A DNA stretch of 64,000 nt from Burkholderiales bacterium (GCA_038324085.1 JBBQHP010000001.1:68381-132380); one strand, 5' to 3'. Positions 28,261 through 53,330 are shown, numbered from the stretch's first letter. A program made the numbers and translations. The notes: generated from the letters alone by a model not told the origin.

Positions 28261-29811
28261 TCACTTCCACCCGAACGCTTCGCGCATGACGTGGAAGATC
28301 GCGTTCTGCTCCATGACGCCGCGCACCAGTTGCGCACCCGGACCGGTCGCGAAGATCGCGACGTCTTCGCCCCCGTGCGTTTCCGCCGGTGCGGGAACAG
28401 TGCTTTCCTGCAGATAGTCGGGGGCCGTGGTGTCGACGTTCGTCAGATCGGGGCGTCCGACGGCCGGATCGACCTTCGCGGGCATATGTTCGAAGCGCTT
28501 CGAGCCCGCGGGCTGCTTGTCGCTGGCACCGGTGTAACCCGGCCCGTTGGCATAGCCGAGCGTCGTGTACGGCCGTCCCGCGAGATCGCGCGCGTAGTCG
28601 CGGGCCTCGTGCCCGGGGGACACCACTTTGCCGAGGATCGGATTGCCGCGCTTCGGGTACCCCGCCATCGTGAACACGTGGCTGTGATCGGCAGTGACGA
28701 TGATGAGCGTGTCGTTGGCATCGGTCGCATCGACGGCGCGAGCAACGGCCTCGGAGAGTGCGATCGCATCGCTAAGGGCGCGATACGCGTTCGACGCGTG
28801 GTGCGCATGATCGATGCGCCCGCCCTCGACCATGAGAAAGTAGCCTTTCGGGTTCTTCGACAGGATCGCCACCGCCTTGGCGGTCATCTCCGCCAGCGAC
28901 GGTTCACCTGACGCGTCTTGCGCGCGGTCAGCCTCGTACTTCATGTGGGACGGCTCGAACAGACCGAGGAGGTGATCGGTGGTCCCAGGATCGACCGCAT
29001 CGAACTGTGCCTTGTTCCACACGTACACGCTGCGGGGATTGTTCGCCGTCCATTCGCGCCAGAGCCTGCGGCCATCCATACGTGAGCCTGCGCGACCCGG
29101 GTATTCCGGATCGGCTTCGTCGACGGTATAGAACTTCGCCCGTCCCCCGCCCAGCGCTACTTCCAGTCCATTGCCGTGCTGAAAATCGAGAAGTTGCCGG
29201 GCGATATCCGGTGTCGTTGCACCTGCCGGCAGATCGGCGTCGCCCTCCCAGTCGCGCTCGGCGCTGTGCGCGTAACATGCGGCCGGCGTCGCATGCGTGA
29301 TTCGGGTCGTCGTCACTACGCCCGTCGATAGCGCGCGGTCCTCCGCCCACTCGAGGATCGTGCGCAGCGCACCGGCACGTACGACTTCGCCGTGCGCTTC
29401 CCTGCGCGGCACGCGATCGGTAACGGAGATCAAGCCGTCGCCCGTCTTGACGCCCGTGACCATGGCCGTCATTGTCGGCGCCGAATCGGGCGTCTGTTGA
29501 TTTGCACTGTAGGTCTTGGACAGGGCCACATTCGGGAACGCCTCGAACGACAATGCGTTGTCTTCGCCCGATCCACCCTTGCGCTGACCGTCGAGGATCC
29601 GCGCTGCCGTGATCGTGGTGATACCCATGCCATCGCCGATAAACAGGATCACGTTTCGTGCGTGGCCGCTGACCGGTCGAATCTGCGCGTTACGTACGAC
29701 GGCGGCGGCCCCGGCGGCGTACCACTCCTCCGGGGACAGATCTGCCGCCAGGGCGGTGGTGGAGATGATCATCGCTCCGACCAACACCGGGACCGGATGA
29801 AAAGTAGTCAT
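28261..29811 (-). CDS. Alkaline phosphatase (PhoA family), secreted
   Basis: 516 aa. Signal peptide MTTFHPVPVLVGAMIISTTALAA, metal site FIGDGMG, and nucleophile motif TPDSAPTMTAM. Confidence 0.85.
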   Translation of the reverse strand: MTTFHPVPVLVGAMIISTTALAADLSPEEWYAAGAAAVVRNAQIRPVSGHARNVILFIGDGMGITTITAARILDGQRKGGSGEDNALSFEAFPNVALSKTYSANQQTPDSAPTMTAMVTGVKTGDGLISVTDRVPRREAHGEVVRAGALRTILEWAEDRALSTGVVTTTRITHATPAACYAHSAERDWEGDADLPAGATTPDIARQLLDFQHGNGLEVALGGGRAKFYTVDEADPEYPGRAGSRMDGRRLWREWTANNPRSVYVWNKAQFDAVDPGTTDHLLGLFEPSHMKYEADRAQDASGEPSLAEMTAKAVAILSKNPKGYFLMVEGGRIDHAHHASNAYRALSDAIALSEAVARAVDATDANDTLIIVTADHSHVFTMAGYPKRGNPILGKVVSPGHEARDYARDLAGRPYTTLGYANGPGYTGASDKQPAGSKRFEHMPAKVDPAVGRPDLTNVDTTAPDYLQESTVPAPAETHGGEDVAIFATGPGAQLVRGVMEQNAIFHVMREAFGWK

Positions 29812-32993: not shown

Positions 32994-33069
32994 TGGTGCC
33001 GGATACAGGAGTCGAACCCGTGACCTTCTGATTACAAATCAGCTGCTCTACCAACTGAGCTAATCCGGC
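32994..33069 (-). tRNA. tRNA-Thr (anticodon UGU)
   Basis: The reverse complement is GCCGGATTAGCTCAGTTGGTAGAGCAGCTGATTTGTAATCAGAAGGTCACGGGTTCGACTCCTGTATCCGGCACCA. It folds as a cloverleaf with anticodon loop TTTGTAA and encoded CCA, and is very similar to E. coli thrU. Confidence 0.9.
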
Positions 33070-33120: not shown

Positions 33121-33543
33121 TTACTTCACGACCTGGAGTTTCGGTCGTCCGCCCGTGGGGGGGGGCGGTGTGTCATCCGGTCGGTCGTCGTTCTTCTCGA
33201 TGCTCGCCATCTCGCTCAATCCAGAGATGGTGGAGGGCTGCTGGAATGCGAGGCCCTGACCGGTCTCCTTCGCAAACACGCCGCTCACCGAGTCCACCGG
33301 CACCGAGAGCTCGCGGGAAACCCCGTTGAAGCGCGCGGAGAACTGGATCACTTCGTTGCCGATGGTCAGATCGCGTGTGGCGTCCGCACTCACGTTGAGG
33401 GTGATCTCGCCGTCGCGCACGTATTCGAGCGGCACTTTGGTGTGCTCGGTGACCTTGACCGCCAGGTAGGGGGTAAAGCCATTGTCGACGCACCACTCGT
33501 AGATCGCGCGGATCAGGTAGGGCGTCGTCGACGCCTGCTTCAC
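33121..33543 (-). CDS. sspB: ClpXP adaptor / stringent starvation protein B
   Basis: TPYLIRAIYEWCVDNGFTPYLAV..., and a C-terminal ClpX-binding tail ...GGRPKLQVVK. Confidence 0.9.
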   Translation of the reverse strand: MKQASTTPYLIRAIYEWCVDNGFTPYLAVKVTEHTKVPLEYVRDGEITLNVSADATRDLTIGNEVIQFSARFNGVSRELSVPVDSVSGVFAKETGQGLAFQQPSTISGLSEMASIEKNDDRPDDTPPPPTGGRPKLQVVK

Positions 33544-34172: not shown

Positions 34173-34922
34173 TTAGTGAACGTCCTTCCAGTACTCCTTC
34201 TTGAGGAGGTAGGCGACCACGAGCAGGACGCCGAGGAAGATGAGGGTGAGGATGCCGATCTGGACGCGATGCGTACGGGCGGGCTCGCCCATGAAAACGA
34301 GATAGTTGACGAGGTCTGCGACGAAGGCGTCGTATTGCTTCGGCGTCAGCGTCCCGGGCTGCACCAGCACGAGTTTCGGTCCCGCGTGGGCGCCGTGATG
34401 CTCGCCTTCGGCGGCTTCTTTGGGCACTTCGAGTTCCTGCTCGCCCTGCAACTGCCACAGCACGTGCGGCATGCCGACGCTGGGAAAGGCAAGGTTGTTC
34501 CACCCGGTCGGCCGGGAATCGTCCCGGTAGTACGTGCGCAGGTAGGTGTAGAGCCAATCAGCCCCGCGCGACCGGGCGATCACGGAGAGGTCCGGCGGCT
34601 GCGCGCCGAACCACTGCATTGCGTCCTTCGGTCGCATTGCCACCGTCATCGGATCGCCGACCTTGGCGTCCGCAGGCAGGAAGTTGTCCTTGATCTGCTG
34701 CTCGGTAAGCCCCAGGTCCATGAGCCGGTTGTAGCGCATGTACTGGGCCGAATGGCAGCTCAGGCAGTAACTCACGAAGTTGCGCGCGCCGCGCTGCAGC
34801 GAGGCCACGTCGTGATTGTCGATGGGCGCCGGGTCGGGCACGAAATGCCCGGCAGCGAGGACCACTGCGGGTGCGAGCAGGGCAAGGGCAACGAGACGTT
34901 GGACGATGCGCATCGTAGTCAT
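34173..34922 (-). CDS. petC: Ubiquinol-cytochrome c reductase cytochrome c1 subunit
   Basis: Signal peptide, CLSCH heme motif and a C-terminal membrane anchor. C-terminal 249 aa of the 589-aa ORF. Confidence 0.9.
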   Translation of the reverse strand: MTTMRIVQRLVALALLAPAVVLAAGHFVPDPAPIDNHDVASLQRGARNFVSYCLSCHSAQYMRYNRLMDLGLTEQQIKDNFLPADAKVGDPMTVAMRPKDAMQWFGAQPPDLSVIARSRGADWLYTYLRTYYRDDSRPTGWNNLAFPSVGMPHVLWQLQGEQELEVPKEAAEGEHHGAHAGPKLVLVQPGTLTPKQYDAFVADLVNYLVFMGEPARTHRVQIGILTLIFLGVLLVVAYLLKKEYWKDVH

Positions 34923-36193
34923 CCGGTCACCCGCTCGGGTTCCGGCTTCTCCTTGTCGTGGGAGGTGTACCAGGGCATGAGGACGAAGAACGCGAAGTAC
35001 ACGATCGTGAAGACGCGGGCGAGGACGGTTGCCATTTCCACGGTGCTGCCCGGGAATTTGCCGAGGAAGTCGGTGGGCTGCATGCCGAGCCAGGCGAGGA
35101 TCACGAAGCTCACCACGAACAGGGCAAGCGCCACCTTGTATTTCGGGCCGCGATAGCGGATCGACTTGACCTTGCCGAAATCGAGCCACGGCAACAGGAA
35201 GAAAACCAGCACGCCGGCGCCCATCACCACCACGCCGGCGAACTGCGACCCGAAGAGCGCGGGAACCGCGCGCAACATCGCGTAGTAGGGCGTGAAGTAC
35301 CAGACCGGAGCGATATGCGGCGGGGTCTTGAGCGGGTAGGCCTGTATGAAGTTGTTTTCCTCGAGGAAGTAGCCGCCGACCTCGGGCATGAAGAATACAA
35401 TGATCGTGAACACCATCAGGAAGACGACGACGCCGACGATGTCCTTCACCGTGTAGTACGGGTGGAAGGCGATGCCATCGAGCGGTATGCCGGTCTTGGG
35501 GTCCTTCTTCTTCTTGATCTCGATGCCGTCGGGGTTGTTGGACCCGACCTCGTGCAATGCGATTATGTGCGCCGCCACCAGACCCAGGAGCACCAGTGGA
35601 ACGGCGATCACGTGGAAGGCGAAGAAGCGGTTGAGCGTCGCATCCGACACGACGTAGTCGCCGCGAATCCAGACCGAAAGGTCCTCGCCGACGAAGGGCA
35701 CCGCGCTGAACAGGTTCACGATCACCTGGGCACCCCAATACGACATCTGGCCCCAGGGCAGCAGGTAGCCGAAGAATGCCTCCGCCATCAGGCACAGGTA
35801 GATCAGCATGCCGAATATCCAGATGAGTTCGCGCGGCTTGCGGAACGAGCCGTAGAGCAGCGCGCGCATCATGTGGAGGTAGACCACGATGAAGAACATC
35901 GACGCTCCGGTCGAATGGATGTACCGCACCAGCCAGCCCCACGGCACGTCGCGCATGATGTATTCGACGGAACCGAATGCCCGTGCGGCATCCGGCTTGT
36001 AGTGCATGGTGAGGAAGATCCCGGAGACGATCTGGATCACCAGCACCAGCATGGCCAGCGAACCGAAGTAGTACCAGAAGTTGAAGTTCTTCGGCGCGTA
36101 GTACTCGGAAAGGTGTGCTTTCCAGTTGGAAGTCAGGGGGAATCGATCATCGATCCACTGGGTGAGCGCGGCGATCTTGCTCATGGAACTCAT
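34919..36193 (-). CDS. petB: Ubiquinol-cytochrome c reductase cytochrome b subunit
   Basis: MSSMSKIAALTQWIDDRFPL...NFNFWYYFGSLA... The stop overlaps the petC start. Confidence 0.9.
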   Translation of the reverse strand: MSSMSKIAALTQWIDDRFPLTSNWKAHLSEYYAPKNFNFWYYFGSLAMLVLVIQIVSGIFLTMHYKPDAARAFGSVEYIMRDVPWGWLVRYIHSTGASMFFIVVYLHMMRALLYGSFRKPRELIWIFGMLIYLCLMAEAFFGYLLPWGQMSYWGAQVIVNLFSAVPFVGEDLSVWIRGDYVVSDATLNRFFAFHVIAVPLVLLGLVAAHIIALHEVGSNNPDGIEIKKKKDPKTGIPLDGIAFHPYYTVKDIVGVVVFLMVFTIIVFFMPEVGGYFLEENNFIQAYPLKTPPHIAPVWYFTPYYAMLRAVPALFGSQFAGVVVMGAGVLVFFLLPWLDFGKVKSIRYRGPKYKVALALFVVSFVILAWLGMQPTDFLGKFPGSTVEMATVLARVFTIVYFAFFVLMPWYTSHDKEKPEPERVTG

Positions 36194-36789
36194 GCTCCCT
36201 TGCTGTCCTGACCGACCATGATCCGGGTGTCGGTGAGATAGGTATAGGGCGGAACCCTCAGATTCACCGGCGCCGGCATGCCCATCAGTACGCGCCCGGA
36301 AACGTCGAACTTCGAGCCGTGGCAGGGGCAGTAGAAGCCGCCCAGCCAATCGTCACCCATCCCACTGTCGGCGCCGATCTGGAGCTTCGCCGTGGGCGAG
36401 CAGCCCAGGTGCGTACAGATGCCGACCAGCACGACATAAGCAGGCTTGATCGAGCGCGTTTCCTTGCCGACATAAGCCGGCTGCTGCGGCTGCTTCGATT
36501 CGGGGTCAGCCACGCGGTCGTCCATCTTGGGAAGGGTCGCCAGCATCGCTGGCGTTCGGTGGATGATCCACACTGGCTGGCCACGCCATTCGATCGTGAT
36601 CATCATGCCCGGCTCGACCTTCGAGATATCGACTTCGACCGGGGCACCAGCGGCCCGCGCGCGCGCGCTGGGGAGCATGGTGCTGAGGAATGGTACGGCG
36701 ACCGCGACAGCCCCGACGCCACCGACCACACTTGTTGCGGCCACAAGAAATCGCCGCTTGCCGACGTCCGGCGCTGACGTATTGCCCAT
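36190..36789 (-). CDS. petA: Ubiquinol-cytochrome c reductase Rieske iron-sulfur subunit
   Basis: Tat-like KRRFLVAATSVVGG, with Rieske motifs CTHLGC and CPCHGS. Confidence 0.9.
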   Translation of the reverse strand: MGNTSAPDVGKRRFLVAATSVVGGVGAVAVAVPFLSTMLPSARARAAGAPVEVDISKVEPGMMITIEWRGQPVWIIHRTPAMLATLPKMDDRVADPESKQPQQPAYVGKETRSIKPAYVVLVGICTHLGCSPTAKLQIGADSGMGDDWLGGFYCPCHGSKFDVSGRVLMGMPAPVNLRVPPYTYLTDTRIMVGQDSKGA

Positions 36790-37048
36790 GCCGAGATCCT
36801 TGCTCTGCGATAAAGACCGCGGAGTATATCGGGCTTTATCGGGAATGTCTCGATTTTGACCGCTAAGCCGCTGTTGCATTGGACAAAACTCCCTGGACAT
36901 CGGCCTCGCCCGCGGCGCTTCGGGGCACTTCACCGAGTCGACGACCTTGCGCCGCACAATAAGCCCCCCCCGCGGCTACGGGATCCTGGTGCCAAAGGCT
37001 ACAATCGGCCTCCGTTTTCCCTCAATCAAGCATCGGGAGCATCGGACC

Positions 37049-37492
37049 ATGAAAGTCCGCGTCAAATGGCTCGAAGGCGTCGCTTTCGTTGCCCAGACCG
37101 AAAGCAGCCACGCCTTCGTGATGGACGGAGCGCCGGAGGGTGGTGGTCGGAACCTGGGGCCGCGCCCCATGGAGACCGTGCTCGCCGGCACCGGGGGATG
37201 TACGGCCTACGACGTCGTGACGATCCTCAAGAAATCACGCCAGGACGTCACCGACGTCTCAGTCGATCTGGACGCCGAGCGCGCATCGACGGACCCGAAA
37301 GTCTTTACCCGCATCCATATGCACTTCGTCGTAACCGGGCGTGGCGTCAAGCGCGAGGCGGTCGAACGCGCGGTGCGCATGTCCGCGGAAAAATACTGCT
37401 CGGCCTCGGCCATGCTCGCCAAGACGGCGGAGATGACTCACGACTTCGAGATCGTCGAACTCGGCGACGCCCGGACCGTGCCTCAGACGTAA
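37049..37492 (+). CDS. OsmC family peroxiredoxin-like protein
   Basis: [33 protein letters not shown]...GGCTAYDV...[10 protein letters not shown], with the two conserved Cys. Confidence 0.8.
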
Positions 37493-38112
37493 TAGGTCGT
37501 TCCGGTCATCACCCGCGAAGTGAGCTTCATCGCGGACCTCACGGGATATGGAAGCTCGGCACCGCCGCTTTCCATGGCCGTGCGGGCATGCGTTGATTCA
37601 TCCTCGCGCATGCGCTCGACGACCGCGCGGCTTTTCGCATCCGCCTCCGGCAGCCGATCGAGATGGCCGGCGAGGTGGCCTTCGACCTGGCGCTCCGTCT
37701 CGGAGAGAAATCCCAGATTCCAGCGATCACCCGCCAGACCCGATAGCGCTCCCATGGCGAACGCGCCCGCATAGAACAGCGGGTCGAGACGACTTCTGCG
37801 TCCACCCAGAGCATCGATGCGCGACCGGGTCCACGCGAGGTGGTCGGTCTCCTCTTCGGCCGCCTGCTCGAGCACCTGGCGCACCGCCGGATCGCGCGCC
37901 GTCAGCATCTGGCCCTGGTAGAGAGCCTGCGCGCAAACCTCGCCGGTGTGGTTCACACGCATCAGGGCAGCAGCGAGGTGGCGCTCGGCGGGCGCGAGGT
38001 CTGCTTCGGGCAGATCGGCGCCCGGCTCGGCCCGACGCGCCTGCGGAAGCACGAACAGGGTCCGCAATCCCCGATCGAAGCCCACGATCAGGCGATCGAG
38101 ATCGAACATCAC
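37483..38112 (-). CDS. coq7: Demethoxyubiquinone hydroxylase (Coq7 family di-iron monooxygenase)
   Basis: Ferritin-like ExxH motifs (EEETDHL, EDESTHA) and [15 protein letters not shown]. The start is either GTG 38112 or ATG 38109, and both overlap the tusA stop. Confidence 0.85.
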
Positions 38113-38351
38113 TTCTTGCGCATCAGGAAGTTGAACTCGCCGCGGCTTTCATTCGCCGCGACCAGCGTATTGCCGGTCTGCTTGGCGAAGGCCTGGAAGT
38201 CGCGCACCGAACCGGGATCGGTCGCGGTCACTTTCAGGACCTGCCCGGAGTTCATGCCGTTCAAGGCCTTCTTGGTGCGCAGAATCGGCAGCGGGCAGTT
38301 CAGCCCGCGTGCGTCGAGCTCGAAATCGTGCAGTGTGATGGCAGTATTCAT
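38109..38351 (-). CDS. tusA: TusA-family sulfur carrier protein
   Basis: 80 aa. [19 protein letters not shown] contains the conserved CPxP cysteine motif. Confidence 0.85.
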
Positions 38352-38686
38352 GTGGGTTCCGATGAATCGGGCAGCGCAAGTTCTTCGCCCTCGCGAATCC
38401 AGGCCAGTACTCCGCCGCGCAGGTTGTAGACCCTTTGGAAACCTTGCGCGGCGAGGAAGTTCGCGGCCTGGAGGGATCGGCCGCCGGACTGGCATACCAT
38501 GACCAGCGGCGCTTCGCGCGACAGCTCATCGAAGCGATTCGGCAATGTTTGCAAAACGATATGACGGGCGCCGGCGATGACCCCGCGGGCCACTTCGGCG
38601 TCGGTGCGAACGTCCACCACGACCACCGCTTCGGCGGCGGCGAGGGCCTTGAACTGGGCCACGGAGATATCGGCGAAGTCGGTCAT
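38348..38686 (-). CDS. Single-domain rhodanese (sulfurtransferase)
   Basis: 112 aa with active-site loop CQSGGRS. ATGA overlaps occur at both ends. Confidence 0.85.
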   Translation of the reverse strand: MTDFADISVAQFKALAAAEAVVVVDVRTDAEVARGVIAGARHIVLQTLPNRFDELSREAPLVMVCQSGGRSLQAANFLAAQGFQRVYNLRGGVLAWIREGEELALPDSSEPT

Positions 38687-39978
38687 CGCAATCCTACGTT
38701 GCGGTCCAGAAGCAGTTGCGAAACCCGTATGTTCGCCGATTCCAGACGCGACACCAGCAGTTCCAGAAACGCCGCATTGAACCGGTTGCGGCACGACTCC
38801 GTGGACTCAGACAGCGCCTGGTCCGCAATCTCGATCATGGTGATGTCGGTCCCGGCGGTGACTGTCGCGGTGCGCTGGAAGTCCTTGGTGCCGAGATAGC
38901 TCATCTCGCCGAAACATTCGCCGGCTTTCAGCACGTTCAACAGCTTTTCACTCTTGGTGACGCGAACCTCTCCTGCCGCGAGAATGAAGAATGATCTGCC
39001 TGCCGCACCCTGACGGATGACCGTGGTGCCGGACGGGTGGCGGGACCAGGTGGAGATGCGCACAACCTGCCAGAGGTCGACGTCACTGAAGCCGCGGAAG
39101 AAGGTCAGTGCGCGCAGGGTGTTGAACTTCTCGGTCTCCGGCACGACCTCGGCGGTGTTCTGCAGGTCCACGAAGATGCTCGCAAGGTCGGATGAGAATT
39201 CCGCCCAGGTCTGGTAGCGCTTCTCCAGATTCTTCTGCAGCGACTTTTTGGCGATGATATCGACTGCGCTCGGGATGTCGGGCCGGTGCATCGATGGCGG
39301 TGGCGGGTCGACGTTGATGATCTGGTAGACCATGCTGAAGTTGTTGGTCGCCTTGAATGGCAATCGCCCGGTCAGCAATTGATAGAGCACCACGCCGAGC
39401 GAGAAGATGTCGGTCTGATGATTGAGTTGGTGGTCACGAACTTGTTCGGGCGACATGTACGCAGGCGATCCCACGCCGGTGACCTGAGTGGTCTCGGACA
39501 CGAGCGACAGTGCGGCGCCGAAATCGGAAATCTTGATGTCGCTGCCGCCGGTCATGAGGATGTTCGCGGGCTTGATGTCACGATGGATGATACCGTGGCG
39601 GTGGGCGAAATCGAGCGCCTTGCTGCACTTGAAGATGATCTCGATGATGCGCGCCACCGGCAACAGGTTGTCGACCTTGCAGAAGGGCTCGAGGGTTCCG
39701 CCTTCCACGTATTCCATGACGATGTAGCTGCCCTCGTCGCTCGCTTCCGCATCGAAGATCGCCACGATGTGCGGGTGCTGGAGCTTGCCGGCGAGGGAGG
39801 CCTCGGTCAGGAACAGCTTCTGGAAGCGCTTGCCGTGCTCCTTGTCGCCGAGCGCCTCCTGCTTCACGAGCTTGACGGCGACCTGGCGGGCTGCGAACGG
39901 ATCGTTCGCAAGATAGACGGCGCTCGTCGCACCCTTACCCAGCTCATGAAGGATCTCGTACTTGCCGATCTTCTGCAT
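38683..39978 (-). CDS. Hanks-type Ser/Thr protein kinase fused to a C-terminal cyclic-nucleotide-binding domain (canonical HRD)
   Basis: GKGATSAV, VAVKL, HRDIKPAN, DFG, SPAYMSPE. The C-terminal CAP_ED domain has FGEMSYL...RTATV. Paralog of 23887-25197. Confidence 0.85.
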   Translation of the reverse strand: MQKIGKYEILHELGKGATSAVYLANDPFAARQVAVKLVKQEALGDKEHGKRFQKLFLTEASLAGKLQHPHIVAIFDAEASDEGSYIVMEYVEGGTLEPFCKVDNLLPVARIIEIIFKCSKALDFAHRHGIIHRDIKPANILMTGGSDIKISDFGAALSLVSETTQVTGVGSPAYMSPEQVRDHQLNHQTDIFSLGVVLYQLLTGRLPFKATNNFSMVYQIINVDPPPPSMHRPDIPSAVDIIAKKSLQKNLEKRYQTWAEFSSDLASIFVDLQNTAEVVPETEKFNTLRALTFFRGFSDVDLWQVVRISTWSRHPSGTTVIRQGAAGRSFFILAAGEVRVTKSEKLLNVLKAGECFGEMSYLGTKDFQRTATVTAGTDITMIEIADQALSESTESCRNRFNAAFLELLVSRLESANIRVSQLLLDRNVGLR

Positions 39979-40077
39979 TGAACACGCGCTCGAGGGCGCG
40001 TACCTCGCGAAAAATGCCAGAATTCTAGCGAATTATCCCCTGCACACCACGGTCGCCGGGCGGCGACGCCACTCCGA

Positions 40078-41385
40078 ATGACACCGATCGACGTGACGGG
40101 GAGGCATCGGACACCGACGTTCGCGGAGGCCCTTCGGTTCTGGTCGCGGCTGGGATTCATCAGCTTCGGTGGCCCGGCCGGTCAGATCGCGATCATGCAC
40201 GAGGAGCTGGTCGTACGCCGGGGCTGGCTCGACGAACGGCATTTTCTGCATGCGCTCAACTATTGCATGTTGCTGCCGGGGCCGGAGGCCCAGCAGCTCG
40301 CGACCTACATCGGCTGGCTGCTCCACGGCCCGCTCGGCGGAATCGCCGCGGGGCTCCTTTTCATCCTGCCCTCGGTGGTGCTGCTGATCGGGGCTGCGTG
40401 GGGATATTGCGCGTTCGGACACGCCGCCTGGCTGATGGGTCTGCTCGCGGGCGCCAAGCCCGCTGTGGTCGCCATCATCATTGCCGCCGCGGTTCGCCTG
40501 GGACGACGCATTCTCGCGCGGCCCTGGGCCTGGACGGTGGCCGTCGCGGCGTTCGGAGCGATCTTCGGCAACGTGCCGTTCCCGTTGATCCTCGCCGCAG
40601 CCGCCGTCGTCGGATTCGCAGTCGGGCGGCGTCACCCCGGTTGGATCGCCGGCTTCGCGCCCGAGGGCGTCGAACCGATGTCGCGCCTGCAGCCAGGCCT
40701 GCGACCGGTCGCGACGCTCGCGCGGGTGGCCGCGGTGGGGTTGGGGCTGTGGTTGTTCGCCATGGCGCTTCTGGCCGTCACAGCGGGACGCGATGGCCTG
40801 CTCGTGCGCTTGGGGTGGTTCTTCACCAAGGCGGCGCTGCTCACCTTCGGCGGTGCATACGCCGTCCTCCCCTACGTGTTCCAGGGACTGGTGGACCACG
40901 AGCAATGGCTCACTGCCGGGCAGATGATGGATGGACTCGCTCTGGGGGAAACGACGCCGGGGCCGCTGATCATGGTGGTCGCATTCGTGGGCTTCGTGGC
41001 GGCGTGGAATCTGCCCCCGCTGTCCGCAGCCGCGACGCTCGGCGCCATCGCAGGCGGCCTCACCGCGGTCTTCTTCACGTTCCTGCCTTCATTCGTCTTC
41101 ATTCTCGGGGGCGCACCACTGGTGGAACAAACGCGCGGCAACCTGCGGCTGGCCGGGCCCCTCGCGGGCATCACGGCCGCCGTCGTGGGTGTGATCGCCA
41201 GTCTCGGGGTGTTCTTTGCCTGGCACGTGCTCTGGCCGACCGGGCTTGCCGGCGGCGTACGCGGCTTCGAACTGGTGCTGTCGGCCGCGGCTGTCTTTGC
41301 GCTTGTAGCGCTCGGATGGAGCGTGATCCGAATCGTCTGCCTGTGTGCCGCTGCCGGATTGCTCCACGCGAGCTTCGCGCCGTGA
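40078..41385 (+). CDS. chrA: Chromate ion transporter (CHR family, two-domain ChrA)
   Basis: 435 aa and polytopic. The duplicated CHR motif is visible (FISFGGPAGQIAIMHEE; LTFGGAYAVLPYV). Confidence 0.8.
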   Translation: MTPIDVTGRHRTPTFAEALRFWSRLGFISFGGPAGQIAIMHEELVVRRGWLDERHFLHALNYCMLLPGPEAQQLATYIGWLLHGPLGGIAAGLLFILPSVVLLIGAAWGYCAFGHAAWLMGLLAGAKPAVVAIIIAAAVRLGRRILARPWAWTVAVAAFGAIFGNVPFPLILAAAAVVGFAVGRRHPGWIAGFAPEGVEPMSRLQPGLRPVATLARVAAVGLGLWLFAMALLAVTAGRDGLLVRLGWFFTKAALLTFGGAYAVLPYVFQGLVDHEQWLTAGQMMDGLALGETTPGPLIMVVAFVGFVAAWNLPPLSAAATLGAIAGGLTAVFFTFLPSFVFILGGAPLVEQTRGNLRLAGPLAGITAAVVGVIASLGVFFAWHVLWPTGLAGGVRGFELVLSAAAVFALVALGWSVIRIVCLCAAAGLLHASFAP

Positions 41386-41401: not shown

Positions 41402-42826
41402 CTATTTCTCCCGTCGGGCAACGACTCCCCGCAGCTCACGCAACCGCGCCTCGATGCTCGAATTCTCGTAGAAATCGCCGTTGCTCGCGCGTTGCGCGAG
41501 TTGCAACTGGTCGATCGCGCCGGTGATGTTACCGTTCGACAGGAAGCTCTCGGCGAGCGACATGTGCTGCTGCATCCTTTTCCCCAGGGCGCTGTAAGCC
41601 TTCGCCTGCAGTGCGTACAGGTGCCCGTCGTTCTGGTCCTTCAGCAATTGTGCGTCCAGTGCCACGAGAGCGCGATCGTTCCTGCCCGCGGCGATCAGCG
41701 CCTCCGCATAGTCGTAGCCAAGGCCGCGATTGCCGGGGAACGCCTTGACGCCTTGGGCGAAGATCTGCAGGGCCCCGTCGCGATCATTCTGTGCGAGTTT
41801 GAGCTTGCCTTCGAGCGCCGTGATCATCGGATTCGCCGGCGCGATCTTCCTGAGCGGCACCATCTCCTCGAGCGCCCGCTTGAGATTGTCGGCGCGCAGC
41901 AAGGCAAGAACGAGGCCGTAGCGCACCCCGATCTCGCTGTTGTACTTGCGATCGGCGAGTTGTTCGTCGAAGAACGTGATCGCGGTGCGCGGTTCGTCGA
42001 TCGTCGCCCGCAGCTTGGCACGCACCAGGTGAAAATCTACGCTGTCCGGAATCTGCACGTAGGGCAGGTTCATGGTGCGGTTCTGAACATCGGCGATGCG
42101 CTCGTACGTGATCGGGTGCGTGCGCATGTACGAAGGCACCGCACCCGAATCGTAAATGCGGGTCGCGCGCTGCAGGCGTTCCAGAAACACCGGCATCGCG
42201 TGCGGGTCGAAGCCGGATCGCTCGACGATCTGGAGGCCCACGCGGTCGGCTTCGCGTTCGTTGTCACGCGTGAAAGCGAGCTGCGTGCTCAGCGCCTGCG
42301 CCTGGGCCGCGGCGATCGCGCCCATCGCGGCCTCTGGATTCGAGCGCGCCGCCAGGATGGCGATGGCGATAGCGGCCAGCGAGGCCATACCCGAACGCTG
42401 TTGCTGGGCGACCATGCGCGCGATGTGCCGCTGCGTTACGTGCGCAATTTCGTGGCCGAGAACGCTGGCGAGCTCCGACTCGGTCTGCGCAGTCAGCAGC
42501 AGGCCCGAATGCACGCCGATGAACCCGCCCGGCAGGGCAAAGGCGTTGATCGTGGGGTCTTTCAGCGCGAAAAACGTGAAATCCATGCGCGTATCCGGAC
42601 TGAACGCCACGAGCCGGTAACCGATCCGGTTCAGGTAGTCCGTGACGTCCGGATCGTCGAGATAGTTCGGCGTCGCGTGGATCTGGCGCATGATCCCGAT
42701 CCCGATCGATCGCTCCTGGCCAACCGAAAGCGCCGACTCGGAGGCATCGCCCAGTTCGGGAAGGTCGTTTGCCCGCGCGGTAATCGCCAGGCAGAACGCT
42801 AGCAGGATCAAGACGAGCGCGCGCAT
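41402..42826 (-). CDS. bepA: Periplasmic M48 metalloprotease with TPR domain (BepA/YfgC-like)
   Basis: Signal peptide, HEIAHV zinc motif and C-terminal TPR repeats. Confidence 0.75.
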
Positions 42827-42835: not shown

Positions 42836-43387
42836 ATGATAACTTCAACGCTTCGGAGTTCTTCCTGCACAGGTGCGCGCAGCTATCCGCACCTCCCGCC
42901 CTTGAATTCGCTCACCCATTTCGACGCCCAAGGCCAGGCCCACATGGTCGACGTGGGCGAGAAGGCCGAAACGCAGCGCGTGGCGATCGCCACGGGGCGT
43001 ATCGCGATGCGCCCGGAGACGCTGACCCGAATTCTCGAGGGCACGGCCGCCAAGGGAGACGTGCTTGGGATCGCGCGCATCGCGGCCATCCAGGGCGCGA
43101 AACGCACCTCGGACCTGATCCCGCTGTGTCACCCGATCGGATTGACCCGGGTGGCAGTCGAGTTCACCGTCAACCGCGAGCATTCCACGATCGATTGCAC
43201 CGCGACCGCGGAGTGCCGCGGGCGCACAGGTGTGGAAATGGAAGCCCTGACCTCGGCGAGCGTCGGGCTGCTCACGATCTACGACATGTGCAAGGCGGTG
43301 GATCGCGGCATGCGCATCGAGTCGATCCGATTGCTGGAGAAACGTGGCGGCAAATCGGGCCACTGGCAGGCTTCGGACCCGGTTTGA
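42836..43387 (+). CDS. moaC: Cyclic pyranopterin monophosphate synthase MoaC
   Basis: [25 protein letters not shown]...LIPLCHPI... The start is uncertain. ATG 42836 lies only 9 nt from the divergent bepA start, and an in-frame TTG at 42902 is plausible. Confidence 0.85.
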
Positions 43388-43448
43388 CGGCCGTGCGAAC
43401 GGTTCCGGCCGCGGCCAGTCGAACCGGATCAGGTCACCAAACTTGTCG

Positions 43449-43802
43449 ATGACACCACCCGCCTCCATTGTCGCTTCGATGATCCTGCTTGCCGCGCTCG
43501 CTGCGGCGGCACCGGTGGGCGCTGACGAGCTTCCCGGGAGGGCCATTGCCCAGGACCAGGAGAAGGGCAATTGCCTTGCGTGCCACCGGATGCCGTCGGA
43601 TCCGGGCGCGGAAACCCTGGCGAATCTCGGTCCGGCGCTGGTCGACGTGAAACACCTCTACCCGGATCGTGCCGCCTTGCGTGCCCAGATCTGGGACGCT
43701 TCGGTAAAAAACCCCGATACCATCATGCCGCCCTACGGCCGCCACCACATCCTGACCGAAACCGAGATCGACCTGGTGACGGACTACATTCACGGCCTGT
43801 GA
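43449..43802 (+). CDS. soxX: Sulfur-oxidation c-type cytochrome SoxX
   Basis: Signal peptide, a single CLACH heme motif, 117 aa, and position directly upstream of soxYZA. Confidence 0.8.
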   Translation: MTPPASIVASMILLAALAAAAPVGADELPGRAIAQDQEKGNCLACHRMPSDPGAETLANLGPALVDVKHLYPDRAALRAQIWDASVKNPDTIMPPYGRHHILTETEIDLVTDYIHGL

Positions 43803-43806
43803 CCCC

Positions 43807-44262
43807 GTGACGCGCGCCGCCCGCAGAAGCTTCCTTGCCCGACTCGCCGGCGCGATATGCGCACTCGCGCTGGTCCCGCTGCGCGCGTTCGGCGCCGAGC
43901 GCAACGTCGAGGCCTTCGAATCCAAGGACGTCGCCAAGGCGCTGCGCCTCATCGGCGCGGCGGCCGCGATCGAGAGCGACGACGTGGTCCTGAAAGCGCC
44001 CGACATCGCCGAGAACAGTGCCCTCGTGCACATCGAGATCGAATCGAAGCTGCCCGGCACCGAAACGATCTGGGTGCTCGCGGACAAGAATCCGCAGCCG
44101 CTCATTGCGCAGTTCGATCTGCTCCCCGGCGTGGATCCGTTCGTGGCGGTGCGCATCAAGATGGCCGATTCGGCATTCATCCGCGCCGTGGTGAAGGCGA
44201 ACGGCAAGTACTGGTACGCGAAGAAGGACACCAAGGTCACGATCGGCGGCTGCGCCGGCTGA
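43807..44262 (+). CDS. soxY: Thiosulfate-oxidation carrier protein SoxY
   Basis: Tat signal (ARRSFLARLAG). The C-terminal swinging-arm cysteine is in ...KVTIGGCAG, a variant of the canonical GGCGG. Confidence 0.85.
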   Translation: MTRAARRSFLARLAGAICALALVPLRAFGAERNVEAFESKDVAKALRLIGAAAAIESDDVVLKAPDIAENSALVHIEIESKLPGTETIWVLADKNPQPLIAQFDLLPGVDPFVAVRIKMADSAFIRAVVKANGKYWYAKKDTKVTIGGCAG

Positions 44263-44290
44263 GCGCACGCCAACCCGCGAGGAATTCACG

Positions 44291-44605
44291 ATGCCCGAAG
44301 CGATCCGAATGCGTATCACGCTGAGCGGCCAGAAAGCCACGGTGAAAGTGCTGATGCCGCATCCGATGGAAAGCGGCCTGCGCATCGATCCACAGACCAA
44401 GGAACTGGTTCCCAAGCACTTCATCCATCACGTCGTGGCCACCCACAACGGTCGCACTGTGCTCGACGCGCAGTGGAGTCAGGCCGTCTCGAAGAATCCG
44501 TTCCTCGAATTTCGCCTGCAGGACGCGAAGGCCGGCGACAAGGTCGGCGTGGCGTGGGAGGACAATCACGGCGAAACGAACAGCTTCGAAACGGAGATCA
44601 AATGA
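44291..44605 (+). CDS. soxZ: Thiosulfate-oxidation carrier complex protein SoxZ
   Basis: 104 aa. The motif MRITLSGQKATVKVLMPHPMESG is typical of SoxZ. Confidence 0.85.
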   Translation: MPEAIRMRITLSGQKATVKVLMPHPMESGLRIDPQTKELVPKHFIHHVVATHNGRTVLDAQWSQAVSKNPFLEFRLQDAKAGDKVGVAWEDNHGETNSFETEIK

Positions 44606-45429
44606 GCGCTGCCCACGTTGCAGCCTGCGTGCTTCTCGTGCTGGCGTCCGTCGCGGCGGGCGCGACGCCTGAAGAGGATCGGACGGCCGTGGTGCGTACA
44701 CTGGAGCAGCGCTTCCCCGGCGTGCCGCTTGATGACTATGTGCTGGGCGGACTCATGCGGAACCCCGCGAGCCGCAGCCATTACGAAGACATCATGGCCT
44801 TCCCGCCTTTCATCGCCGACGTGGAACGTGGAAAGGTTCTCTGGGAAACGCCGTTCCGCAACGGCCGTACCTACGCCGAATGTCTGCCCGGCGGCGGGCG
44901 GATGATCGCCGGTAAATATCCGCTGTTCGATGCGCACGAAAGCCGGGTGATCACCTTCGAGATGGCGCTCAACCGGTGCCGGCACGACAACGGGGAGCCC
45001 GAGTATCGTTACGACGATCGCGCCACCATGGGTCTACTTACCGCTTATGCGCGTTCGCTGTCCGATGGCATGCGCATGGACATACGCGTGGAGGGCGACG
45101 CAGCCCGGGCGAAGTACGAGGATGGTCGGCGCCTGTTCTACCGCCGCATCGGTCAGATGAATTTTTCCTGCGCCAACTGTCACCTGGACAATGCCGGCAA
45201 GATCATGCGCATGGAAACAATATCGCCGGTTGTCGGGCAGCCCGCCCATTTTCCGATCTTCCGCGGCGGCGAGACGGTCTATACGCTGCACATGCGGTAT
45301 ACAAGGTGCATGGAGCAAGTCCGGGCGCAGCCGTTTCCGATGGGCAGCGAAGCGTTCAACAATCTCGAGTACTTCCATTCTTATCTGAGCAATGGCCTGC
45401 CCATGCAGGCGTCGGTCTACCGCCGCTAG
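44602..45429 (+). CDS. soxA: Sulfur-oxidation cytochrome SoxA (single heme-binding motif)
   Basis: ATGA overlap with soxZ. Only one CxxCH motif (CANCH) is present, and a candidate distal Cys ligand lies in RYTRCMEQV. Confidence 0.8.
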   Translation: MSAAHVAACVLLVLASVAAGATPEEDRTAVVRTLEQRFPGVPLDDYVLGGLMRNPASRSHYEDIMAFPPFIADVERGKVLWETPFRNGRTYAECLPGGGRMIAGKYPLFDAHESRVITFEMALNRCRHDNGEPEYRYDDRATMGLLTAYARSLSDGMRMDIRVEGDAARAKYEDGRRLFYRRIGQMNFSCANCHLDNAGKIMRMETISPVVGQPAHFPIFRGGETVYTLHMRYTRCMEQVRAQPFPMGSEAFNNLEYFHSYLSNGLPMQASVYRR

Positions 45430-45448
45430 TCTGCGGCCGGCCGCAGAC
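45429..45448 (+). other. Perfect 20-nt GC-rich palindrome (hairpin without a U-tract) immediately after soxA
   Basis: GTCTGCGGCC/GGCCGCAGAC begins at the last base of the soxA TAG stop codon. Confidence 0.6.
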
Positions 45449-45484
45449 GCTCCGATCGGTGTCGCCAAGACATTTCCGAACGTC

Positions 45485-47011
45485 ATGCAAGCACCGGTAC
45501 CGGATGTCGGCGACGACCCGCGGACGTTGACGGAAGCGGCGCGCGCCGCCTATCTGCGCAGCGATCTCGCTGCGGCTCGCATGCTCGCCGACCAGGTGCT
45601 GGCGCGCGCCCCCGGCCACGCGCCGGCGCTGAATCTGCTCGGCAACCTGCACCTCGCCGACGGGCTGCTCGACGACGCCGAGCGTTGCTATCGCGCAGCG
45701 CTCGCCGCGGACGCGAATCTCCGGTGCGCACGCTTCAATCTCGGCCTGGTCTGCCTGGAACGCGGCGATCGGGCCGGCGCCATTCGCGAGCTCGAGCCGG
45801 CGCTGGACGAAACCAGCGATGCCGAAGACTGGCTCTTGCTCGGCAACCTGCTCCACAGCGAGGGCCGCGCCGACGCAGCGCTTGCCCATTGGACGCGGGC
45901 CACGACCCGCAATCCGGCACTGGTCGAAGCCTGGTTCAATCTCGGCAGCGTCCAGCGCGCGCTCGGCCGGCGCCAGGATGCGCGCGCGGCGCTCGAACGC
46001 GCACAACAACTGCAGCCCGGCGCAGCGGCGATTCGCCTCGAACTCGGGCTGCTGGACCATGCCCAAGGACGATATTCCGCGGCCCTCGAGCAATTTCGCC
46101 ATGCGGTGGCTGCCGATCCTGCGAACGTCGATGCGCGCGTGAATCTGGCCGAGACTCTGCGCATCGTCGGTTCGAGCGCCGATGCGGCGACCTTGCTGGC
46201 CGAAGTGGTGAGCGATCACCCCGATGCCGGAAATGCGCACAAGGCCCTGGGCCTTATCGCCCTGTCCGAAGCGCGCCCAGCGGATGCAGCGGTGCACTTT
46301 CGGACCGCCCGCAAGTCACTGCCCGAAGATTCGGAGATCGCCCATCTGCTGGCCGCGGCCGAAGGACGTACCGCCGATGCGGCGCCGGCCGACTACGTGC
46401 GTTCCCTGTTCGACGGTTTTGCCGTGCGCTTCGACGAAGAACTGACACGGGATCTGGGCTATCGGACGCCAGGGGAGCTCGCCGCGGCGTTGCGCGAGTG
46501 CCTGCCCGAACCGCCGCCACCGCTCCGGGTCGCCGATCTGGGGTGCGGCACGGGCCTCGCCGGAGTCGCGCTGGGCACGATGTGCGCAAGCCTCGTCGGA
46601 GTCGATCTCTCCCCTCGAATGCTCGACGAAGCGCGCGCGCGCAATCTTTATTCAGAGCTCGTCTGCCAGGACCTGGTCGCATTCCTGAATCAGGGCGCAG
46701 AAGCGCGCTTCGACGCGCTGGTCGCCGCCGACGTCTTCATCTACGTGGGCGGGCTCGATGCCGTGTTCGCCGCGGCCCGACGGGCATTGGCGCACGGCGG
46801 GCACTTCGCGTTTTCCCTTGAACTTGCCGCGGAGGGCGGCGATGCTCAGGCCATCCTGCGCCCTTCGGGGCGCTTCGCCCACCGTCCGGATGCGGTGAGC
46901 GTGCTGGCAGAGACGACGGGGTTCGCCACGCTCGCCTGGCGCGAAACGATCCTGCGTCACGATCGCGCCGAACCTGTACGCGGTCTGATCGCAGTCCTGG
47001 CCGCGCACTGA
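45485..47011 (+). CDS. TPR-repeat protein fused to a class I SAM-dependent methyltransferase
   Basis: N-terminal 34-aa TPR periodicity (...AYLRSDLAAARMLADQVLARAPGHAPALNLLGNL...). The C-terminus has SAM motif I (VADLGCGTGLAG) and DALVAADVFIYVG. Confidence 0.8.
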   Translation: MQAPVPDVGDDPRTLTEAARAAYLRSDLAAARMLADQVLARAPGHAPALNLLGNLHLADGLLDDAERCYRAALAADANLRCARFNLGLVCLERGDRAGAIRELEPALDETSDAEDWLLLGNLLHSEGRADAALAHWTRATTRNPALVEAWFNLGSVQRALGRRQDARAALERAQQLQPGAAAIRLELGLLDHAQGRYSAALEQFRHAVAADPANVDARVNLAETLRIVGSSADAATLLAEVVSDHPDAGNAHKALGLIALSEARPADAAVHFRTARKSLPEDSEIAHLLAAAEGRTADAAPADYVRSLFDGFAVRFDEELTRDLGYRTPGELAAALRECLPEPPPPLRVADLGCGTGLAGVALGTMCASLVGVDLSPRMLDEARARNLYSELVCQDLVAFLNQGAEARFDALVAADVFIYVGGLDAVFAAARRALAHGGHFAFSLELAAEGGDAQAILRPSGRFAHRPDAVSVLAETTGFATLAWRETILRHDRAEPVRGLIAVLAAH

Positions 47012-47013
47012 GC

Positions 47014-49002
47014 ATGTTCGACTGGCTCAGGCGTGCCATCACCACGGCGCCCGTTGATCGGGGCAGCCTGGCCCAGGCCAATGCCGCGCTCGCCGAAGGA
47101 CGGGACGCGCAAGCAGTGGCGCTCCTCGATGCCTTCCTGCGCCAGCACGCTGCGGACGCAGAAGCGTTGCAGCTTCGCGCGATCGCGGCGTGCCGCGCGG
47201 GCGATTTCGTCCTGGGCGAGGACCTGCTCGGACGCGCGATCGCCGCGGACGCGACGCGGATCGAGCCGCATCTCACGCTCGCCGAAGTGCACCTGGAGCG
47301 GGAGCGCTTCCTCGACGCGATCGGGGAACTGCGTGCCGCGCTCGCGCTCGATCCGAACCGGCCCGCCACGCACCAACGGCTTCTGATGGCGCTCGGTGCC
47401 GCCGGACGCGACGACGACGCGCTCGAATACTGGCAATTGCTGCGCGGGCTCGACTGGCGGATCGATCCCGCGGACGATCCCGTCGCCGTGCTGCATGCGC
47501 AGGCGCGGCTGGTGGATGCGGAAGCCGCACTCGAAGGACGTGCACGGCACGCGCCGAACGACGCGACCACCCATCTGATGCTCGGCATCACGCGCCAGGC
47601 GCGCGGATTCATCGACGCGGCGATCGCCGCATTCCGCGATGCGGTTCGCGCCGATGATGGCTGCGCCCGAGCGCACGGCAAGCTCGCCTTCGCACTCGAC
47701 TCGCGTGGCGACGTGGCGGAATCGATCGCCCACTACCGGCGGGCTGCGGAGCTGGATCCCGGCTCGGCCCAGGCGCTGTCGGATCTTCTCGCTGCGCGCA
47801 TCTACGTCGGTCCCCACGACGCCCTGGAATCCGCGCGCGCCTACGGCCGCTATGAAGAACGCTTTGGTCGCCCGTTGCGCGACCACGCGCCGTTCACCCT
47901 GGCGCGCGATCCCCAGCGCAGACTGCGTGTCGCCTACGTCTCGAACGATCTCTCGGAGCACGTGATCAGCTATTTCCTCGAGCCGGTGCTCGCGTCGCAC
48001 GACCGATCGGAAATCGAAGTCTGGTGTTACGACCGCACCCGGCAGAGAGACGCGACCAGCGAACGCCTCGAACGGCTCGCGGACGTATGGCGCCGGGTAC
48101 CGGAGACGGATTTCGCGACCCTCGCGACCCAGGTTCGCGCCGATGCGATCGACGTGCTGGTGGATCTGAAAGGACACTTCGACGACAACAGCCTGCCGTT
48201 GTTCGCGCGCAAACCCGCGCCGGTACAGCTCACCTGGCTGGGCTACCCGGACACCACCGGGCTCGCCGCCATGGATGGATGGATCACGGACGGGCACATT
48301 GCCGCGGACCTGTCGGACCAGTACGCGACCGAGGAGATCATCGCACTCGACGATTTCTTCATGTGCTTTCGGCCCAAACCGGGCGCGCCGCCGCCGGCGA
48401 CCGTACCGTCGCTGTCGCGCGGGGCGATCACCTTCGGTTGTTTCAATGCCTACTCGAAGGTGAGCCCGGCGATGCGCGCGGCGCTGGCGGAGATTCTCCA
48501 GGCGCTCCCGCATTCACGACTGCTGATGACTGCCGTACCGCGCGGTGACGCGCGTACCCGCCTTCTCGCCGGGTTCGAGGCCGCCGGCATCGATCCTGAG
48601 CGGATCGAACTCCGCGGCCGCACGACGCACGCCCAGTTCCTGGCGTCCCACGACGAAGTCGATCTCGCGCTCGACAGTTTTCCGTACAACGGGACGACCA
48701 CAACCCTGCACGCGCTCTGGATGGGGGTACCGTTCGTGGCGCTCGCCGGAACCACGCACGTCGCGCGCGTCGGCGCCAGCATTCTCGCGAACGTCGGACT
48801 GGACGACTGGATCGCCCGCGACGTGGCCGGCTATGTGCGCATCGCGGTCGAACGGGCCGCGGATACGGCGCTCCTGGCCCGGTTGCGGCACTCGCTTCGG
48901 GGCCGACTCGCGGCCTCTCCGATCCTGGATGAAGCCGGCTTCACCCGGCGACTCGAGCGCGTCTACCGCGAGCGCTGGCGGCGCTGGTGCGCCGCCGATT
49001 GA
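47014..49002 (+). CDS. TPR-repeat protein fused to a GT41 (OGT/SPINDLY-like) glycosyltransferase domain
   Basis: TPR N-terminal half. The C-terminal half has LRVAYVSNDLSEHVISYF, APVQLTWLGYPDTTG, ITFGCFNAYSKV and LDSFPYNGTTTTLHALWMGVPFVALAG. Confidence 0.8.
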   Translation: MFDWLRRAITTAPVDRGSLAQANAALAEGRDAQAVALLDAFLRQHAADAEALQLRAIAACRAGDFVLGEDLLGRAIAADATRIEPHLTLAEVHLERERFLDAIGELRAALALDPNRPATHQRLLMALGAAGRDDDALEYWQLLRGLDWRIDPADDPVAVLHAQARLVDAEAALEGRARHAPNDATTHLMLGITRQARGFIDAAIAAFRDAVRADDGCARAHGKLAFALDSRGDVAESIAHYRRAAELDPGSAQALSDLLAARIYVGPHDALESARAYGRYEERFGRPLRDHAPFTLARDPQRRLRVAYVSNDLSEHVISYFLEPVLASHDRSEIEVWCYDRTRQRDATSERLERLADVWRRVPETDFATLATQVRADAIDVLVDLKGHFDDNSLPLFARKPAPVQLTWLGYPDTTGLAAMDGWITDGHIAADLSDQYATEEIIALDDFFMCFRPKPGAPPPATVPSLSRGAITFGCFNAYSKVSPAMRAALAEILQALPHSRLLMTAVPRGDARTRLLAGFEAAGIDPERIELRGRTTHAQFLASHDEVDLALDSFPYNGTTTTLHALWMGVPFVALAGTTHVARVGASILANVGLDDWIARDVAGYVRIAVERAADTALLARLRHSLRGRLAASPILDEAGFTRRLERVYRERWRRWCAAD

Positions 49003-49014
49003 GCGGGCGCGCCG

Positions 49015-49332: not shown

Positions 49333-49565
49333 TCCGTTTGCTTATGTCGATCGCCCCGTATCCAACAGCCCCAGCGCATCCACGCGCTCGGAGGACCGCA
49401 AGTGCTCTGTCGAGTTTCGCACGTGGCTCCGACACTGAAAAGCAATATCCGATCCACTGCGTCCGCGCCGGCGCATGCGCTCGGTCAGCCTCACGAGCTG
49501 CGCGCGGGCGCCGATTCCGCGGCTGGAATGCGGGGGCACGCTGTGCCACGAAAGGGCGGTCGCAC

Positions 49566-53323: not shown

Positions 53324-53330
53324 CGACCCG

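Follow-up and report, generated by a model that had tools for sequence, protein, structure and literature searches.

Results

Locus architecture

We examined a 64,000-nucleotide (nt) stretch of DNA from a Burkholderiales bacterium (GCA_038324085.1, JBBQHP010000001.1:68381-132380), referred to here as the window, whose minus strand carries four adjoining genes for a Hanks-type Ser/Thr kinase with a C-terminal domain for binding cyclic nucleoside monophosphates (cNMPs), a single-domain rhodanese (Rhd), a TusA-family sulfur carrier and the di-iron ubiquinone-biosynthesis hydroxylase Coq7 (Table 1). A preliminary description of this DNA, made from its sequence alone, had proposed that the four genes are chained by overlapping stop and start codons (ATGA, ATGA and GTGATG); a table of open reading frames (ORFs), together with a reading of the sequence, confirmed the chain, and Pfam and NCBIfam domain matches bore out the four gene identities. 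The overlaps are not an assembly artefact, since an independent assembly of the source sediment metagenome, from Logan, contains a 6870-nt contig that is identical over positions 37300-40100, with 0 differences. The four genes also share a strand, are separated by minimal or negative spacers and have no terminator-like sites between them, as expected of an operon. Stop/start overlaps of 1-4 bp are, however, ordinary in this genome (others in the 65.5% GC window are that of sspA/sspB at 33540-33543 and the junctions at 17711 and 51788), so those described here point to an operon but are unremarkable in themselves. Judging from the pairwise ratios of nonsynonymous to synonymous substitution (dN/dS) against four relatives, which range from 0.06 to 0.27 at a dS of ~1, purifying selection acts on all four genes, the kinase being the most constrained of them (0.06-0.2).

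Kinase

The product of the first gene matches Pfam Pkinase (PF00069) at 3.7e-53 (181 bits against a cutoff of 31.7) and, in its C-terminal part (amino acids (aa) 314-390), cNMP_binding (PF00027) at 2e-15 (57 bits against 27.5). In an alignment of 20 orthologs and in the clade of kinases linked to tusA and coq7, the residues K36, H132-R133-D134, D152-F153-G154, T163/T164 and S176-P177-E178 are invariant or nearly so, G357, E358, R369 and A371 of the cNMP-binding domain are invariant, and the phosphate-binding cassette (PBC), FGEM[SA]YLG…R[ST]A[ST]V, is kept in all linked orthologs. Because the catalytic and PBC motifs are conserved, the protein does not appear to be a pseudokinase, and its cyclic-nucleotide-binding (CNB) domain keeps the nucleotide-contacting residues; the catalytic death of the kinase, named in the preliminary description as a result that would undo its proposal, is thus not what the sequence predicts. 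The suggestion that the kinase is soluble also held, as its maximum Kyte-Doolittle hydrophobicity over 19 residues (KD19) is 1.15 and there is no hydrophobic segment. More than 120 database clusters were found at an identity of at least 69%, all of ~431 aa, with an identical architecture and from uncultured Burkholderiales/Betaproteobacteria. An AlphaFold2 model of the kinase built from the 20-sequence alignment was poor (mean predicted local distance difference test 57, predicted template modeling score 0.38), and it was not used for domain docking or fold search.

The best solved relative of the kinase is Mycobacterium tuberculosis PknB (186 bits), to which the catalytic domain aligns over residues 6-270; the Lys, HRD and DFG motifs can all be identified, and the threonines of the activation loop are in register. 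Unlike PknB and Streptococcus pneumoniae StkP, the operon kinase has neither a transmembrane segment nor PASTA repeats, and its cNMP-binding domain is followed by a long predicted helix. The combination of a protein kinase with a CAP/PKA-type CNB domain, whose PBC has the signature Gly-Glu…Arg-Thr/Ser-Ala, is shared with PKG and PKA, and PKG structures match the kinase domain at 139 bits. However, a single CNB domain lies C-terminal to the kinase here, whereas the CNB domains of PKG are N-terminal, and the closest kinases are PknB and StkP, not the AGC kinases, which places the protein outside the PKA/PKG family. The CNB domain also gives weak matches to CRP (30 bits) and to the CNB domain of the mycobacterial acetyltransferase Pat (27.6 bits). 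The theme shared with Pat and CRP/FNR is that a CNB domain gates the effector to which it is joined, which in this case would be a Hanks kinase. In the literature searched, we found neither a characterized bacterial protein joining Pkinase to a C-terminal CNB domain nor a description of a cNMP-binding Hanks kinase from Proteobacteria.

A second gene of the Pkinase-cNMP_binding type lies 13.5 kb away in the window (23887-25197, plus strand), and its 436-aa product is 53% identical to the operon kinase. Its catalytic loop reads HCD in place of HRD, which makes it a non-RD kinase; it is preceded by an EF-hand gene (22594-23052) and a glutathione S-transferase (GST) gene (23114-23782) and followed by a convergent universal stress protein gene. 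This paralog clusters with unlinked homologs, among them L009, which has a GST gene upstream as well, so the operon kinase is one branch of a duplicated family whose other branch occupies a different genomic setting. Among the matches listed, more distant homologs (Azoarcus, Azonexus, Usitatibacter, Gallionellaceae and others) have no adjacent tusA or rhd, and a contig scan with the generic motif IHRDIKPA returned, again among the matches listed, only homologs of at most 56% identity and generic kinases, which served as outgroup. In an Azoarcus metagenome-assembled genome (L001, 1495-5877), the gene for an unlinked-type cNMP kinase, its start overlapping the argH stop, has coq7 ~2.5 kb upstream; this proximity looks coincidental, because the sister genome L003 has the argH-kinase pair without coq7 nearby.

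Rhodanese, TusA and Coq7

The motifs CQSGGRS and CPLP pointed out earlier are both present and mark Cys65 of Rhd (nt 38494-38492) and Cys19 of TusA (nt 38297-38295). Rhd matches the Pfam Rhodanese model at 1.2e-18, and the Cys of its active-site loop (C65-QSGGR-S) is conserved in 7/7 aligned orthologs; it scores below the GlpE equivalog cutoff (62 against 102 bits), with the rhodanese model and the conserved C-QSGG-R loop nonetheless present. TusA matches its Pfam family model at 7.8e-25 (87 bits against a cutoff of 28.6) but falls below the NCBIfam equivalog cutoff (NF001423, 60 against 78 bits), and the Joint Genome Institute (JGI) annotates the family found here as a tRNA 2-thiouridine protein. 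Its core is almost invariant among 12 orthologs, the Cys included, and Cys19, within the CPxP motif, is in register with Cys19 of Escherichia coli TusA (1DCJ, 3LVJ), a protein of the same length and fold family. The E. coli protein acts in the IscS-TusA-TusBCD-TusE-MnmA pathway and has a link to the molybdenum cofactor; moaC lies two genes away from the operon, but tusBCDE, mnmA and iscS are not adjacent to it. Rhd and TusA are hence, on their sequences, members of known families to which a more specific function cannot be assigned.

Coq7 matches Pfam COQ7 at 2.2e-45 and NCBIfam NF033656 (DMQ_monoox_COQ7) with 298 bits against a cutoff of 180, it aligns to the human COQ7 structure 7SSP, and all six of its di-iron ligands (E57, E87, H90, E139, E171 and H174) are invariant. 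Kinase-linked Coq7 proteins carry Phe112 and Ser123, whereas unlinked Coq7 proteins have Trp (69/76) and Ala (71/76) at these positions, which are the only two that are clade-specific (window ~37774-37776 and 37741-37743, minus strand). In a screen of Coq7 for clade-specific Ser/Thr residues, S123 alone stands out, and it may serve as a weak lead toward a phosphorylation site. The mapped phosphosites of yeast Coq7 lie in the N-terminal region.

The 3′ ends of coq7 and of the convergent osmC-family gene overlap by 10 bp (37483-37492), as they also do in relative L174; this leaves no space for a terminator, so the two transcripts must be mutually antisense. A convergent osmC is found close downstream of coq7 in most of 80 coq7 loci randomly sampled from metagenomes at 54-69% identity, which argues that the coq7-osmC pair is older than the linkage to the kinase.

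Conservation of the gene order

We then asked, as the preliminary description had suggested, whether the gene order is conserved outside this genome. The order kinase-(rhd)-tusA-coq7 was found in every relative, that is, in 15/15 related lineages examined (16 with the window). Look-ups with the kinase gave this order, followed by convergent osmC, in 9/9 orthologs (69-91% identity), with bepA and moaC upstream and petABC downstream, and look-ups with TusA gave it for 2/2 homologs (7 places). In the unbiased sample of 80 coq7 loci, tusA lies upstream in four, and the kinase is present in each of these whose contig reaches that far; the other loci have heterogeneous upstream genes (GlcF-like, TrpC, CNP1, porin, SHMT and DctP). 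The linked kinases form one monophyletic clade in a neighbor-joining tree, down to 57% identity, and in the Coq7 tree the linked sequences sit together in one region.

The overlaps are less well conserved than the order. Only the 91%-identical relative L174/L175 retains the chain of three, and it is there that both ATGA overlaps (kinase-rhd and rhd-tusA) are found, whereas tusA and coq7 overlap, by 1 or 4 bp, in most relatives (L081, L083, L168, L170, L171, L173, L174, L182 and L092). As this overlap persists in most lineages, tusA-coq7 appears to be the tightest unit of the cluster, and none of the insertions of chrA and DUF218 or the presence/absence differences of rhd and sox splits tusA from coq7. 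The rhodanese gene is an optional member, present in 10/16 lineages and absent in 6/16; two distinct sub-clades of the kinase tree have it, and others lack it. A recent insertion of rhd in the window was considered and rejected, given this occurrence in two sub-clades and a divergence of rhd that tracks that of coq7; the simplest reading of its distribution is patchy loss.

Upstream, bepA precedes the kinase in all relatives with a contig long enough to show it. The chrA gene is inserted between bepA and the kinase only in the window and in L174/L175; in the other relatives, bepA immediately precedes the kinase and shares its strand. The surrounding block soxXYZA-moaC-bepA…osmC-petABC-sspAB (~12 kb) is syntenic too. 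Although most sampled members of the lineage carry soxXYZA beside the operon, it is absent upstream of moaC in L173 and fragmentary in L083, and both retain kinase-rhd-tusA-coq7, so the operon is not tied to the adjacent sox cluster.

Promoter and transcripts

The intergenic region that separates the kinase from the divergent chrA contains a −10-like box, GCTAGAAT, whose hexamer (40027-40022, minus strand) precedes the start codon of the kinase by ~44 nt. L174, L168 and L170 have the motif TTCGCTAGAAT(T/C)C at an equal spacing from their kinase ATG, and L176 and L182 carry variants of it. As the box is kept whether or not a relative has the chrA insertion, the kinase is suggested to open the transcription unit, and the motif probably serves the operon promoter as its −10 element. 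A generic promoter scan did not call the box, and inspection by eye of the 99-bp region gave no convincing match to sigma-54 or FNR/CRP sites.

We found no RNA runs containing the window. A relative of L092 is represented in a sediment metatranscriptome by two contigs at ~90-93% identity and a depth of 2-4, for which DNA carry-over is possible: one of 456 nt contains all of rhd and runs into tusA, and one of 207 nt spans the tusA-coq7 overlap. Alignment of metatranscriptome contigs to the window at 80% likeness yielded only cross-mapping of conserved motifs and was not used as transcript evidence.

Wider neighborhood

Along the window, the genes run sspB-sspA-petCBA (minus), osmC (plus), coq7-tusA-rhd-kinase (minus), chrA (plus), bepA (minus) and moaC-soxX-soxY-soxZ-soxA (plus), followed by a run of genes with tetratricopeptide repeats (TPR) and glycosyltransferase family 41 (GT41) domains; the coordinates agree with the earlier statement that soxXYZA and petABC lie within 6 kb of the operon. 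Among the ~50 window genes scanned there is no dsrE2, dsr or hdr gene, nor was any match to the DsrE, Dsr or Hdr families found in the relatives examined.

These TPR genes, which are large, lie directly downstream of soxXYZA at positions 45392-59841 (plus strand). Some combine the repeats with a further domain, and the products are one TPR-methyltransferase, three TPR-GT41 (O-GlcNAc-transferase-like) proteins, one TPR-GT9 protein and one TPR-only protein. TPR-methyltransferase or TPR-GT41 genes also lie beside sox in L081, L168, L170, L171 and L176. Elsewhere, the window contains a phosphate and second-messenger neighborhood (2988-16112) with genes for a HAMP-PAS-GGDEF-EAL protein (2988-6101), ppk1 (6501-8738), ppx (13017-14579) and phoU (14602-15309), a large alkaline phosphatase gene (28261-29811) and a single tRNA gene (32997-33069, minus strand), which is the only Rfam match in the 64 kb.

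Table 1. Coordinates of the operon, its domains and junctions, and the neighboring genes in the window.
Feature	Position	Strand	Basis or remark
Hanks-type (PknB-like) Ser/Thr kinase gene with C-terminal cNMP domain, 431 aa	38683-39978	-	ORF table, Pfam
Kinase catalytic domain, aa 7-256	39211-39960	-	K36 (VAVK), HRD Asp134, DFG 152-154, activation-loop T163/T164, SPE 176-178
Kinase cNMP-binding domain, aa 314-390	38809-39039	-	Phosphate-binding cassette FGEMSYLGTKDFQRTA at nt 38866-38910
rhd, single-domain rhodanese, 112 aa, optional member	38348-38686	-	Pfam Rhodanese
tusA, TusA-family sulfur carrier, 80 aa	38109-38351	-	Pfam TusA
coq7, di-iron demethoxyubiquinone (C6) hydroxylase, 208/209 aa	37483-38112 (GTG start) or 37483-38109 (ATG start)	-	NCBIfam NF033656
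Kinase stop/rhd start overlap, ATGA	38683-38686	-	Read from sequence
rhd stop/tusA start overlap, ATGA	38348-38351	-	Read from sequence
tusA stop/coq7 start junction, GTGATG	38107-38112	-	GTGA 4-bp or TGATG 1-bp overlap
osmC-family gene, convergent on coq7	37049-37492	+	Pfam OsmC; NCBIfam NF008009, 156 bits against cutoff 138
Intergenic region divergent from chrA, putative operon promoter inside	39979-40077 (99 bp)	-	
chrA, chromate-transporter gene	40078-41385	+	Pfam Chromate_transp, 2e-71
bepA-like M48/TPR protease gene	41402-42826	-	Pfam Peptidase_M48 and TPR
petABC	34173-36957	-	<6 kb from operon
soxXYZA	~43344-45429	+	<6 kb from operon

Discussion

A lineage-specific operon and a possible role of its kinase

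We give a probability of roughly 55% to the reading that kinase-(rhd)-tusA-coq7 is a genuine polycistronic operon, which originated a single time in an uncultured Burkholderiales/Betaproteobacteria lineage and was retained in it, and that the kinase acts on the products of the operon. According to this proposal, one copy of a duplicated gene for a Pkinase with a C-terminal cNMP domain, together with a TusA-family gene, would have come to lie upstream of a housekeeping coq7-osmC locus. A promoter with the conserved TAGAAT box upstream of the kinase would drive a single mRNA, on which termination-reinitiation at the stop/start overlaps could set the output of Rhd, TusA and Coq7, with the tusA-coq7 junction as the conserved core of the coupling. 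The rhodanese would transfer sulfane sulfur to Cys19 of TusA (persulfuration), and Coq7 would carry out the last ring hydroxylation of ubiquinone, at C6, which is the standard role of betaproteobacterial Coq7 (PMC10597321).

The kinase is predicted to be active, to be gated by cAMP or cGMP at its C-terminal domain and to autophosphorylate the activation-loop residues Thr163/164, and its most plausible substrates would be the products of the same operon. Coq7 is the first candidate because the hydroxylation of demethoxyubiquinone (DMQ) by yeast and human COQ7 is phospho-regulated, the enzyme being dephosphorylated by Ptc7/PPTC7 at a control point of coenzyme Q synthesis (PMC6506691). The enzyme step is the same, but this is an analogy only, and no phosphatase is encoded at the operon. 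In its most specific form, the proposal would have a cNMP-gated kinase phosphorylating Coq7 (candidate site Ser123) and/or TusA, the latter as a dedicated Coq7 partner, so that a second messenger sets ubiquinone synthesis in step with sulfane sulfur, in a bacterial counterpart of eukaryotic COQ7 phospho-control; this version in full detail seems to us improbable. Control of a sulfur relay or of quinone synthesis by cNMPs and phosphorylation is purely conjectural.

Several observations weigh against the proposed operon and its kinase. The arrangement is confined to a single clade and shows no independent recurrence, and since the ~12 kb of flanking genes are equally syntenic, vertical inheritance could explain its conservation. 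Outside the 91%-identical relative, the kinase is followed by a gap of 2-111 bp in place of an overlap, and the position between the kinase and tusA may gain or lose rhd. In the metatranscriptome of the L092 relative, no contig covers the kinase-rhd junction, and the RNA libraries may contain DNA. Full-length homologs of the kinase at 35-56% identity, as well as the paralog, have unrelated neighbors (ArgH, Mur ligase, FAA hydrolase, EAL, RidA and GST). Among the window genes scanned there is no nucleotide cyclase, PP2C phosphatase or FHA protein, and the sole nucleotide-signaling gene, for the PAS-GGDEF-EAL protein, concerns c-di-GMP. In addition, we know of no sulfur requirement in the chemistry of Coq7.

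Alternative explanations

The main rival explanation is synteny by descent, in which unrelated housekeeping functions (a global signaling kinase, sulfur mobilization and ubiquinone synthesis) have stayed together in one family-level lineage and any co-transcription is incidental. The monophyly of the linked kinases and the clustering of the linked Coq7 sequences are consistent with this, as are the moaC-bepA…petABC-sspAB block, conserved to an equal degree, the older coq7-osmC pair, which occurs without the kinase and with heterogeneous upstream genes in 76/80 sampled loci, and the paralogous and outgroup kinases, which have no fixed partner. Yet with dS at ~1 to the nearest relative and kinase identity down to 57%, the kinase, tusA and coq7 were never separated, even though insertions and losses do occur around and between other genes. 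The maintenance of the tusA-coq7 start/stop overlap in most lineages and the strong constraint on the kinase, the highest of the four genes, likewise argue against passive retention. We therefore regard descent alone as a serious contender but on the unlikely side.

A second possibility is that the TusA-family protein is not a general sulfur carrier but a dedicated accessory of Coq7, as a chaperone or as a redox or thiol partner (loosely like COQ9 for eukaryotic COQ7), to which the kinase and the rhodanese were secondary additions. This would suit the tusA-coq7 junction, the only one with an overlap conserved across the clade, the almost invariant TusA core and the clade-specific W112F and A123S of linked Coq7 against 76 unlinked Coq7 sequences. 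However, betaproteobacterial Coq7 orthologs function alone in E. coli (PMC10597321), 76/80 sampled coq7 loci have no tusA nearby, and there is no precedent for a TusA-Coq7 interaction, the two proteins never being mentioned together in the literature searched. A dedicated Coq7 accessory is therefore doubtful.

Relays of the rhd-tusA-dsrE2 type are known from sulfur oxidizers such as Allochromatium vinosum. The preliminary description had placed rhd-tusA among these dissimilatory cytoplasmic relays, in an operon coupling sulfur oxidation to quinone-pool synthesis under cNMP/phosphorylation control; the part of this claim that stood is a single-domain rhodanese immediately upstream of TusA, both with an intact active-site Cys, and soxXYZA and petABC are neighbors here and in most relatives. 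We nevertheless give the relay little credence, since the third gene is coq7 and not dsrE2, no linkage to dsr or hdr was seen among the window genes scanned, rhd is dispensable (missing from 6/16 lineages), sox is absent at this position in L173 and fragmentary in L083, and TusA lies below the E. coli equivalog cutoff, with a JGI label that points to tRNA 2-thiouridine.

Implications

In keeping with the earlier claim that the arrangement is undescribed, the literature searched contained no TusA paired with a Hanks kinase in a bacterial context, as well as no joint mention of TusA and Coq7, and a large survey of ubiquinone hydroxylases did not discuss genomic context; the operon is thus apparently undescribed and lineage-restricted. 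All of its components belong to well-known families, and the finding rests on gene neighborhood in uncultured organisms. What is new is the association of a predicted cNMP-gated Ser/Thr kinase upstream of a coupled TusA-Coq7 pair, which is abundant in environmental data. If the link between these genes is not functional, the cluster is of use simply as a clean synteny marker of one uncultured lineage of the Burkholderiales. If the proposed operon and its kinase act as suggested, they would provide the widespread and uncharacterized Proteobacterial kinases that combine Pkinase with a C-terminal cNMP domain with candidate substrates and their first physiological role. They would also imply an unexpected role of a TusA-family protein in quinone metabolism and mean that mitochondria are not alone in controlling the Coq7 step post-translationally.

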